Origin: a virus
Lineage: Duplodnaviria > Caudoviricetes
DNA: 64,000 nt
Virus record (IMG/VR): IMGVR_UViG_3300028364_000013
Reading direction: 5' to 3' (one strand)
The notes beneath the pieces are model-generated. The model worked only from the letters and a program-made list of their open reading frames with translations, did not search any database and was not told the origin of the DNA. Made by a program: the position numbers and the translations under genes. Of the stretch, positions 2,296-2,676 are shown piece after piece. Numbering within the stretch: the stretch's first letter is position 1; every line of letters begins with the position of its first letter.

Positions 2296-2346
2296 TGGTG
2301 CCGCAGGGAGGAATGACCCTCCACTTTATAGCCTGATGGCTGCAGC
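2296..2346 (-). ncRNA. 51-nt CCA-ending mini-tRNA-like RNA (A)
   Basis: GCTGCAG/CTGCGGC stem + ACCA; GGAGG-GTCATT-CCTCC hairpin; linker TATAAAG; homologous to 2629..2676. Confidence 0.65.
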
Positions 2347-2352
2347 GTGTTG

Positions 2353-2404
2353 TGGGAGAACCAGGATTCGAACCTGAGATTGATACCTTACATATCTTTC
2401 TCCC
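2353..2404 (-). ncRNA. 52-nt truncated tRNA-like RNA (acceptor + T-arm + one hairpin)
   Basis: GGGAGAA/TTCTCCC-A acceptor; TCAGG-TTCGAAT-CCTGG T-arm; only 20 nt between them (GATAT-GTAAG-GTATC hairpin). Confidence 0.65.
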
Positions 2405-2409
2405 ATTTG

Positions 2410-2547
2410 TGCCCGTGAGTGGATTCGAACCAAAGAACTCTTTTCCCACTTTGTTGCAACGTTTCGGAATCGAGTGCAAGAATATACCAACTGTTACTCC
2501 TCACAATTAAACGTTATCATTGCGTCTTGTAATCTTGCATCACGGGC
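2410..2547 (-). ncRNA. 138-nt tRNA-like RNA with expanded D and anticodon regions
   Basis: Perfect GCCCGTG/CACGGGC acceptor; GG-TTCGAAT-CC T-loop; TGCAAGA/TCTTGCA stem enclosing the D-loop-like AGTTGGTA. Confidence 0.6.
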
Positions 2548-2552
2548 GTTTG

Positions 2553-2628
2553 TGGCGAATGAAGGGTTCGAACCTCCGACCTCTGCCATCCGAAGATGAT
2601 AGCGCTCTACCAACTGAGCTAATTCGCC
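2553..2628 (-). ncRNA. tRNA-like RNA whose anticodon loop is replaced by a cUUCGg tetraloop
   Basis: Canonical acceptor GGCGAAT/ATTCGCC, D-arm and T-arm; the arm reads CTATCATC-TTCG-GATGGCAG (20 nt). Confidence 0.8.
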
Positions 2629-2676
2629 TGGTGCAGTGGGGAAGTTTGACCTCCCGCTTTATAACCGAGTCACTGC
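2629..2676 (-). ncRNA. 48-nt CCA-ending mini-tRNA-like RNA (B)
   Basis: GCAGTG/CACTGC stem + ACCA; GGGAG-GTCAAA-CTTCC hairpin; linker TATAAAG. Confidence 0.65.

Follow-up and report, generated by a model that had tools for sequence, protein, structure and literature searches.

The acceptor/T-arm minihelix has served for some forty years as an artificial minimal substrate and figures in ideas about the origin of tRNA; synthetic versions are model substrates for RNase P, aminoacyl-tRNA synthetases, EF-Tu and the CCA-adding enzyme. Phages keep non-decoding small RNAs of their own inside tRNA clusters, the closest published analogues in context and tRNA-like ends of the elements described here being rnaC and rnaD of T4, for which we still know of no function, as since the 1970s. 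tRNA-like structures also set the ends of other RNAs: RNase P cuts at such structures create the 3' ends of the RNAs upstream, as in MALAT1/mascRNA and the plant mitochondrial t-elements. What would a natural minihelix gene look like in a phage? The locus analysed here lies in a window (the whole stretch of DNA under study, 64,000 nucleotides) taken from an 81-kb, about 25% complete IMG/VR record, IMGVR_UViG_3300028364_000013 (Caudoviricetes), as the reverse strand of its bases 12051-76050. It contains two paralogous elements, mini1 and mini2, of 48 and 51 nt, both read on the minus strand. In them the minihelix is a natural, conserved gene whose CCA is written in the DNA, and it is followed by an apparent built-in release device, a tRNA body in which a UUCG, GNRA-type or UUAG tetraloop replaces the anticodon loop. 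Judged by sequence comparison, the minis form a real, uncatalogued and apparently undescribed phage RNA family, because homologues exist and their stems covary.

Anatomy and conservation of the minihelix genes

Both minis follow one plan: a 7-nt acceptor 5' strand, a linker of 13-18 nt (a hairpin of 2-3 bp, then UAUAAAG), a 5-bp stem with a 6-nt loop, the 7-nt acceptor 3' strand, an A and the CCA. This is the build of an acceptor/T-arm minihelix, in which a 7-bp acceptor stacks without interruption on the 5-bp stem of a hairpin and is followed by a discriminator and a single-stranded CCA. Because the D and anticodon arms are replaced by the linker, the minis cannot decode. The acceptor of mini1 (GCAGUG(A), type 1) has six base pairs and an A.C mismatch at pair 7, and that of mini2 (GCUGCAG) seven, including U3.G70. 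Between the two, acceptor pairs 3, 5 and 6 and hairpin pair 4 differ on both sides, with pairing kept in four out of four. The minimum free energy (MFE) folds reach -17.2 kcal/mol for mini1 (z -2.8) and -22.1 kcal/mol for mini2 (z -2.9), and MFE z-scores of minis range overall from -2.0 to -3.0 against shuffles. The CCA of each directly abuts G+1 of a tRNA-like partner (2628 for mini1, 2295 for mini2), with no intervening base, and the 7-nt 5' strand of each partner pairs perfectly with its own 3' strand.

An earlier note, made from the letters of this DNA alone, had described two CCA-terminated elements of about 50 nt, stems that differ in sequence yet stay paired, and a CCA that meets position +1 of an aberrant tRNA with zero spacer. 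All three observations hold, architecture and coordinates included, on the minus strand. Two of its details stand in part. It took the minis for the only elements with an encoded CCA, which is true inside the window, where the remaining array members carry CAA or CTA at that place, but not in the record, where two tRNA-Ser(GCU) genes, 4.7-5 kb past the window start, encode CCA as well. The GTCA(T/A)(T/A) loop that it noted is common to the two window copies but is not conserved in the homologues.

The minis are not chance structures. A two-round covariance model (R1, then R2) matches exactly two sites in the 81-kb record (E about 1e-10) and none in 154 kb of related phage DNA without the array; together with the z-scores, and with no plausible open reading frame (ORF) spanning the mini region, this excludes coincidence. 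Model R2 gives mini1 62.6 bits (E 7e-11) and mini2 60 bits, and retrieves 12 of 12 distinct copies with an E of 1e-7 or better.

Where do the other copies come from? The methyltransferase gene that bounds the array has 119 homologues, which were used to fetch syntenic loci (labelled L031 and so on); a first related-locus search using this gene found nothing. Array-bearing loci were obtained at methyltransferase identities of 92% (L037/L038/L039), 83% (L031-L033, from groundwater), 82% (L041), 79% (L101), 78% (L100) and 77% (L040). L058 and L085 were added through a metagenome pattern scan, in which only L058, L085 and L071 were real among 57 matches, the rest being a gut-bacterial gene and other chance matches. 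This gives 12 distinct mini sequences from at least eight independent metagenome assemblies of related phages, all in one syntenic array of peptidyl-tRNA hydrolase (Pth2), amber suppressor tRNA, mini, partner and methyltransferase; the family is known only from uncultured phages. They fall into two paralogue types, with acceptors GCAGUGA (type 1) and GCUGCAG (type 2). Orthologues of mini1 are present in L031, L037, L040, L041, L058, L085, L100 and L101, each just downstream of the amber suppressor tRNA, and orthologues of mini2 at L037:3857-3910 and L085:719-771; the window phage, L037 and L085 hold both types in one genome. Relatives without minis are L035 and L042, whose methyltransferases are at most 66% identical, and G001, a 95-kb relative found via DnaB that has neither a mini nor any similarity to the array. 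The covariance-model search proposed in the earlier note, which had named the lack of homologues with covarying stems as grounds for abandoning the idea, thus came out in its favour.

Further afield the family leaves little trace. Pattern scans of IMG/VR for the core motif and for the CCA/tRNA junction returned chance matches in a protease gene, or none, and a genome scan with the junction pattern met ordinary tRNAs only, some of them true zero-spacer tandems. Blastn against GenBank phages found generic tRNA matches only, and lake metagenome contigs at the locus generic tRNA pieces with no informative variants. The minis match no Rfam family, even with E values as high as 10 admitted (positions 2280-2700, 421 nt), and no description of such a phage minihelix or mini-tRNA RNA family was found in the literature.

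The copies vary in a way that argues for selection on structure. In the model-fitted alignment A5, 93.9% of cells are paired, against 41-69% with slid partners, the T-like stem being paired in 100% and the acceptor in 89.6%; the covariation score is reached by 0 of 500 shuffles. Five pairs change on both sides, with the proviso that there are only two paralogue lineages and that counts of covarying cells overstate the independent events. Some changes have recurred independently inside one type: L040, in type 1, has A6-U, and L037a has both C5-G and A7-U. (A MAFFT alignment of the two window copies alone, A1, placed an indel at the 5' end and was not consistent with the structure; model-based alignments were used instead.) G1-C72, C2-G71, G4-C69, A73 and the CCA are invariant in all copies; pairs 3, 5, 6 and 7 vary. 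Pair 3 is A-U (8 copies) or U.G (3 copies), never G.U, and pair 5 is U-A or C-G, that is, pyrimidine-purine in all minis. The hairpin 3' strand runs into the acceptor 3' strand with 0 nt between them in 12 of 12 copies, and ACCA is likewise invariant. The loop drifts from a T-loop-like UUCAAUG (L085a) to unrelated sequences. UAUAAAG is nearly constant, with one variable position and with TATCAAG, TATTAAG and TTAAGA as variants of the box; tentatively, it may form a 3-bp hairpin presenting AUNA, with which 94% of cells are compatible and which barely covaries.

The partners and the proposed release of a free minihelix

The partners retain acceptor, D and T arms and have no anticodon loop. In partner 1 an 8-bp hairpin with a UUCG tetraloop stands as the anticodon arm, and there is neither an anticodon nor an encoded CCA; partner 2 matches the Rfam tRNA model with an 83-nt insertion. 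The spacer between CCA and partner is 0 nt in 11 of 12 distinct copies and 1 nt, an extra A, in L040. In alignment A6 (10 tetraloop partners and two unfused relatives) pairing holds in 95.8% of cells, and both bases have changed in 15 of 24 pairs, among them six of the eight pairs of the extended hairpin, which is capped by UUCG, GAAA or UUAG; of the acceptor pairs of the partners at the mini loci, only pair 1 is invariant. The partners thus covary more strongly than the minis, and such covariation of the hairpin under its various caps identifies the partner as a selected non-decoding design and not a product of decay. The same kind of tRNA-like RNA is found unfused, with an ordinary spacer and no mini, at L039:301-377, L058:3596-3671 and L037:4136-4285. 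Since such forms occur and structural selection is strong, the partner probably has a role of its own, and the earlier note's suggestion that anticodon-less tRNAs act as processing guides is probably incomplete. Nor is the junction new as a principle, since ordinary bacterial tandem tRNA genes (L112, L113, L116) also join an encoded CCA to the next tRNA with zero spacer.

The long hairpin insert measures 83 nt in the mini2 partner and roughly 100 nt in L101. The 83-nt insert has a conserved homologue in L037:4136-4285; the orthologue L039:301-377, whose acceptor stem is identical to that of partner 2, has a plain UUCG tetraloop and no insert. As an observation in its own right, the insert is strongly conserved, with the palindrome GAAUUACGUAAU, the element GAGUAGUAUGUGUAAAG and a covarying hairpin; its presence varies between orthologues, and it has no Rfam match. 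It looks like either a passenger RNA on a tRNA scaffold or a small mobile insert. A bulge-helix-bulge intron of the archaeal type was rejected by eye, there being no bulge on the 3' side.

How, then, would a mini be made? The array would be transcribed as a unit, in which the mini and its full-size tRNA-like partner form a head-to-tail dimer. Host RNase P would recognise the partner and cut at +1, leaving a mini with a finished CCA-3'OH that needs neither RNase Z nor a CCA-adding enzyme. CCA blocks RNase Z, and the encoded CCA would shield the mini from it. Bacterial RNase P accepts CCA-bearing acceptor/T minihelices as minimal substrates; the mini has this classical shape, and its own 5' end could be made likewise. 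The other array members, without CCA, would take the ordinary route of RNase Z and CCA addition. (Pfam families of CCA-adding enzymes and RNA ligases were not found in the 81-kb fragment, which is uninformative in about a quarter of a genome.) Release by RNase P fits the anatomy because the spacer is zero in nearly all copies, CCA is confined to the minis within the arrays examined and the partner keeps its acceptor, D and T arms. On the rules of tRNA processing we regard this maturation scheme as rather probable.

What would a free mini do? It may act in trans on proteins that recognise the CCA and the first acceptor pairs, either as their decoy or as a competing substrate; host defence toxins that target the tRNA acceptor are examples of such proteins. 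Acceptor-end mimicry suggests itself because fixed pairs 1, 2 and 4 and A73-CCA with a free pair 3 are what an acceptor-end reader would impose. FaRel2, a toxin linked to antiphage defence, modifies the CCA of synthetic minihelices in vitro, and its determinants are G1-C72, C2-G71, G4-C69 and purine5-pyrimidine68, with pair 3 free (bioRxiv 10.1101/2024.07.05.602228). The minis match at pairs 1, 2 and 4, vary at pair 3 and are opposite at pair 5. The setting would be an island for phage translation and counter-defence, with Pth2 and the amber suppressor tRNA. A decoy role for the free mini is speculative and somewhat unlikely. Joined to the setting, the idea takes two forms: the minis might be a counter-defence that spares the suppressor tRNA and the host tRNA pool while a huge recoded phage infects, soaking up or diverting toxSAS pyrophosphokinases, MenT-type nucleotidyltransferases or GNAT acetyltransferases, or they might be charged mini-acceptors that work with Pth2. 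This joint proposal we consider unlikely. The central proposal, a phage minihelix RNA family released by RNase P with a ready CCA and mimicking the acceptor end, appears to us evenly balanced.

Several points weigh against it. The match to FaRel2 is incomplete, pair 5 being opposite to the determinant. In L040 the 1-nt spacer would leave CCAA. The mini loop has drifted from a T-loop in most copies, with which the elbow contacts of RNase P and of tRNA-binding proteins are probably lost. The invariance of pairs 1, 2 and 4 could stem partly from shared ancestry, as the copies fall into just two paralogue lineages. The fitting of alignment A5 to the structure of the model favours pairing; its stems are anchored at the 5' end and the CCA and agree with a manual alignment. 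Finally, the unfused tetraloop tRNA-likes mean that the partners are not merely release handles.

Does the mini have to be a free RNA at all? It always sits between the suppressor tRNA and a tRNA-like partner and is never found alone, its loop and linker sequences drift, and in the distant relative L042 CCA-less mini-like hairpins are tandem units of the array. All this would suit an element with no job as a free RNA, which acts only in cis as a structured spacer or leader for the folding, processing order or stability of the polycistronic array; it could separate the suppressor tRNA from the partner or protect its 3' trailer, the CCA shape offering a clean stop to RNase P or exonucleases. We find such a role rather unlikely, as a spacer needs no invariant G1-C72, C2-G71, G4-C69, A73 and CCA and no zero-nt junction, other junctions of the array work with plain CAA-type spacers of 5-10 nt, and two paralogues are retained in several genomes (the window phage, L037 and L085). 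Might the mini instead be charged? A synthetase of host or phage that reads nothing but the acceptor end would aminoacylate it, and the product would be an amino-acid carrier, or an acceptor on ribosomes in the manner of puromycin or of the tRNA-like domain (TLD) of tmRNA, recycled by Pth2. A 12-bp acceptor/T stack with A73-CCA is the form that several synthetases charge and EF-Tu binds, the terminal pairs are invariant and Pth2 adjoins the array in all loci. This use is nevertheless improbable: pair 3 is A-U or U.G and never supplies the G3.U70 of the alanine set, ARAGORN reports no tmRNA, a message part is lacking, no synthetase or SmpB is seen near the array, and most synthetases charge minihelices poorly without the anticodon.

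The remaining alternatives fare worse. The minis are clearly tRNA-derived, their T-stem GGAGG/CCUCC matches that of neighbouring tRNA-likes, and a homing endonuclease rearranges an array that holds an orphan tRNA 3' fragment, so that they might be internally deleted pseudogenes not yet eroded. Retention in at least eight assemblies, over flanking methyltransferase identities from 93% to about 75%, compensatory changes that preserve both helices and the conserved CCA and junction make decay very improbable; how decay appears in this array can be seen from the true remnant at 2765-2785. Fainter still is a signal in the DNA, with TATAAAG as a -10-like promoter box for the partner or as a target of homing endonucleases or recombination. 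TATAAA does resemble the -10 hexamer and homing endonucleases do occur within the array, but the box varies (in the three forms given above) while the flanking stems compensate, which is selection on RNA and not on DNA, and the promoter/terminator scan of the locus showed no enrichment above shuffled expectation. A self-cleaving ribozyme trimming the neighbouring tRNA, a minimal HDV-like theta ribozyme or another small one, has a negligible chance of being right. Theta ribozymes are HDV-like RNAs found beside the suppressor tRNAs of recoded gut phages, in which TAG is a sense codon and tRNAs lack CCA; they fold into a nested double pseudoknot (P1, P1.1, P2, P3, P4) with a catalytic C in J4/2 and cleave at most 5 nt from the 3' end of the upstream tRNA (PMC10879173). 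The context is alike, and the order of a 7-nt strand, a hairpin and a complementary 7-nt strand recalls P1-P3-P1'. Nothing beyond P1 and P3 is there, however: after the 3' strand come only ACCA and the partner, P1.1, P4, the J4/2 catalytic C and P2' are missing, and a loop-to-tail pairing that is possible in mini1 is absent in the homologues. Between the upstream tRNA and the would-be cleavage site, the 5' end of the mini, there are 5-26 nt (in the window, 10 nt), and no Rfam ribozyme matches the 421-nt stretch at E up to 10. On these grounds the theta ribozyme was rejected as a candidate.

The array and its neighbours

The tRNA-shaped genes of the array are on the minus strand between a Pth2 gene and a methyltransferase gene (Table 1). 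In order, they are the tRNA-like gene with a 9-nt anticodon loop, the homing-endonuclease ORF (on the opposite strand), the amber suppressor, mini1, partner 1, the 138-nt and 52-nt tRNA-likes, mini2 and partner 2. The suppressor, 10 nt upstream of mini1, is the constant neighbour of type-1 minis, and the order suppressor, mini, partner is kept in every locus with a type-1 mini.

Table 1. Features of the tRNA-like array and its borders (window positions).
Feature	Position	Strand	Basis
mini1, 48-nt CCA-ended minihelix RNA gene (type 1)	2629..2676	-	Sequence, MFE fold, model R2, orthologues
Partner 1, 76-nt tRNA-like RNA, UUCG-capped	2553..2628	-	Rfam tRNA 53.2 bits, anticodon arm unaligned
mini2, 51-nt CCA-ended minihelix RNA gene (type 2)	2296..2346	-	Sequence, fold, model R2, orthologues
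Partner 2, 148-nt tRNA-like RNA, 83-nt insert replacing the anticodon loop	2148..2295	-	Rfam tRNA 41.5 bits
Amber suppressor tRNA, anticodon CUA	2687..2758	-	ARAGORN and Rfam, 63.2 bits
52-nt tRNA-like RNA without D arm and without usable anticodon loop	2353..2404	-	Weak tRNA match (23 bits), fold
138-nt tRNA-like RNA: acceptor stem, T arm, large insertion in the D-arm region	2410..2547	-	Sequence and fold
tRNA-like gene with 9-nt anticodon loop CUGAUAUUU, first array member	3574..3649	-	Rfam tRNA 43 bits
Homing-endonuclease-like ORF, 233 aa	2815..3516	+	PHROG HNH/homing endonuclease families, E 1e-14
Peptidyl-tRNA hydrolase (Pth2), in-frame TAG, upstream array boundary	3674..4102	-	Pfam PTH2, E 5.6e-10 when TAG is read through
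Small methyltransferase, in-frame TAG at codon 17, downstream array boundary	1622..2131	-	Pfam MTS, E 5.5e-4, below cut-off

Pth2 stands at the matching position in L031, L037, L040, L085, L100 and L101, and the early TAG of the methyltransferase is conserved in L031, L037, L040, L041, L058 and L101. Because both flanking genes carry an in-frame TAG, they seem to depend on the suppressor tRNA. Just downstream of the methyltransferase, at 1200-1625 (-), lies a 141-aa ORF (PHROG cysteine dioxygenase, E 8e-34) that is next to the methyltransferase in all relatives. The record, with a GC content of about 34%, is a fragment of a very large phage, because it carries large replication and structural genes and relatives of its methyltransferase are located on contigs of 285-680 kb; the DNA runs that contain the locus are lake-water metagenomes, and searches for RNA runs with the locus listed none. 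The relative L031 (ENA ERZ1292623, 90,065 bp) bears the NCBI protein label 'Nanoarchaeota archaeon', from a metagenome-assembled genome, and is probably a mis-binned phage contig because it is syntenic with the window phage (NT5C, Pth2, tRNA array, methyltransferase, FtsH-like protease).

Other members of the array are unusual as well. To fit the first one ARAGORN needs a 2-nt 'intron' in its loop; the loop of the L037 orthologue, CUGAUAUUA, is 9 nt long too, its stem carrying compensating changes, and the orthologues in L031, L040, L041, L058 and L100 have a 7-nt CUGAUUU loop. Further array members keep GAU in the loop and lose U33 (CCGAUGU, CAGAUGU, CAGAUAA); they might decode isoleucine, read longer codons or not decode at all. 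The 5-bp hairpin of the 52-nt tRNA-like covaries under a loop that is not conserved (GUAAG, AUCCAG, AUCAAG), and orthologues with compensating stem changes are found in L031, L040, L041, L058, L085, L039 and L100. Elements similar to the 138-nt tRNA-like are present in L037, L039, L041 and L085, and the 52- and 138-nt forms recur in L031, L039, L040, L041, L058, L085 and L100. The homing-endonuclease ORF has an identical position in L037/L038. Beside it, at 2765-2785 (-), is an orphan 21-nt 3' fragment (half a T arm and an acceptor strand, ...CCCCAAGGA) that is identical to the end of an intact tRNA-like gene of L039; the arrangement of fragment and ORF is shared by L037/L038, and the endonuclease cassette apparently displaced the 5' part of that tRNA-like gene. 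The T4 tRNA cluster likewise holds segB.

Two observations come from outside the array. At G000:C1:80711-80794, beyond the window and 4.7 kb past its start, an unrecognised tRNA-like element sits between two tRNA-Ser genes; its acceptor is 7 bp long, its T arm (GGUUCGAAUCC) canonical and its interior, which holds two hairpins, non-canonical. Two tRNA-Ser(GCU) genes of this cluster encode CCA and their neighbours do not. In L042, whose methyltransferase is 66% identical with TAG read as sense, positions 569-983, immediately downstream of a tRNA with anticodon CAU, match the GOLLD RNA at 92.8 bits (E 2e-24), short of the gathering score of 150. The mini-like hairpins of L042, about 47 nt each and in tandem (1110-1159 and 1163-1213), follow the mini plan with A-CAA instead of A-CCA, and upstream of the GOLLD match, at about 240-300, the 12-mer GTTATAAAGTGG and TCCATAAGG are shared with type-2 minis.

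Comparison with known systems

How do the minis relate to RNAs already described? They are not canonical tRNAs (RF00005): without an anticodon arm, they go unreported by cmscan (E up to 10) and by ARAGORN, its intron mode included. The tRNA-like domain of tmRNA, TLD-only forms among them, has an acceptor stem, T arm, ACCA and reduced D region without an anticodon arm, as the minis do. The minis differ in lacking G3.U70 and a nearby SmpB. Between its acceptor strands tmRNA has a message-like region with a tag ORF and pseudoknots, which the minis lack, only 13-18 nt separating their acceptor 5' strand from the hairpin; ARAGORN -m on the record finds no tmRNA. Theta ribozymes are likewise structured RNAs of about 50-60 nt beside CCA-less or suppressor tRNAs, and both systems imply unconventional processing of the array; the minis have no double pseudoknot and no catalytic C, and the cut proposed for them is by RNase P on the 3' side instead of 5' self-cleavage.

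For the partners the nearest parallels are MALAT1/mascRNA, the plant mitochondrial t-elements and the TMER vtRNAs of gammaherpesviruses, in which enzymes of tRNA processing recognise a non-decoding tRNA shape that sets where the adjoining RNA ends; the partner is proposed to do the same. The partner has the fold of such a processing signal: non-decoding, with its acceptor, D and T arms kept in a covarying cloverleaf and an 8-bp tetraloop hairpin. Those signals are eukaryotic, organellar or from animal viruses, whereas the minis belong to a phage array and the RNA that would be released is itself a CCA-ended tRNA mimic. The partners also look like nature's counterpart to the 'tRNA scaffold' that has been engineered for expressing inserted RNAs. 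Like the minis, synthetic acceptor/T-arm minihelices have a 12-bp coaxial stack, a discriminator and a single-stranded CCA, and they have been assayed with the toxSAS FaRel2 (10.1101/2024.07.05.602228). It is this portion of a tRNA that FaRel2, RNase P, the synthetases, EF-Tu and the CCA-adding enzyme read. The synthetic minihelices are made in the laboratory, measure about 35 nt and lack a side linker; the minis are genes found in nature, with a 13-18 nt excursion (UAUAAAG) that is conserved and a loop that drifts.

In T4, rnaC (species 1) and rnaD (species 2) are, like the minis, small RNAs that do not decode. Their genes belong to a phage tRNA cluster, with gaps of 1-6 nt to the genes next to them and with the homing endonuclease segB alongside; rnaD has an encoded GCACCA at its end, rnaC a T arm and an acceptor-like strand. 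They are longer (119-139 nt, as against about 50) and have no fused anticodon-less partner, and model R2 over the T4 tRNA region scores 6.7 bits or less (E above 1), so that homology is not detectable. RNAs that look like tRNAs but do not decode, and tRNA-like structures that fix where an RNA beside them ends, are a known kind, to which this locus adds a gene family with its structure, covariation, synteny and fusion geometry. If the RNAs are made as predicted, the minis would be a new class among the largely unexplained non-decoding tRNA look-alikes of phage tRNA arrays, and a directly testable case of phage mimicry, at the RNA level, of the tRNA acceptor end.

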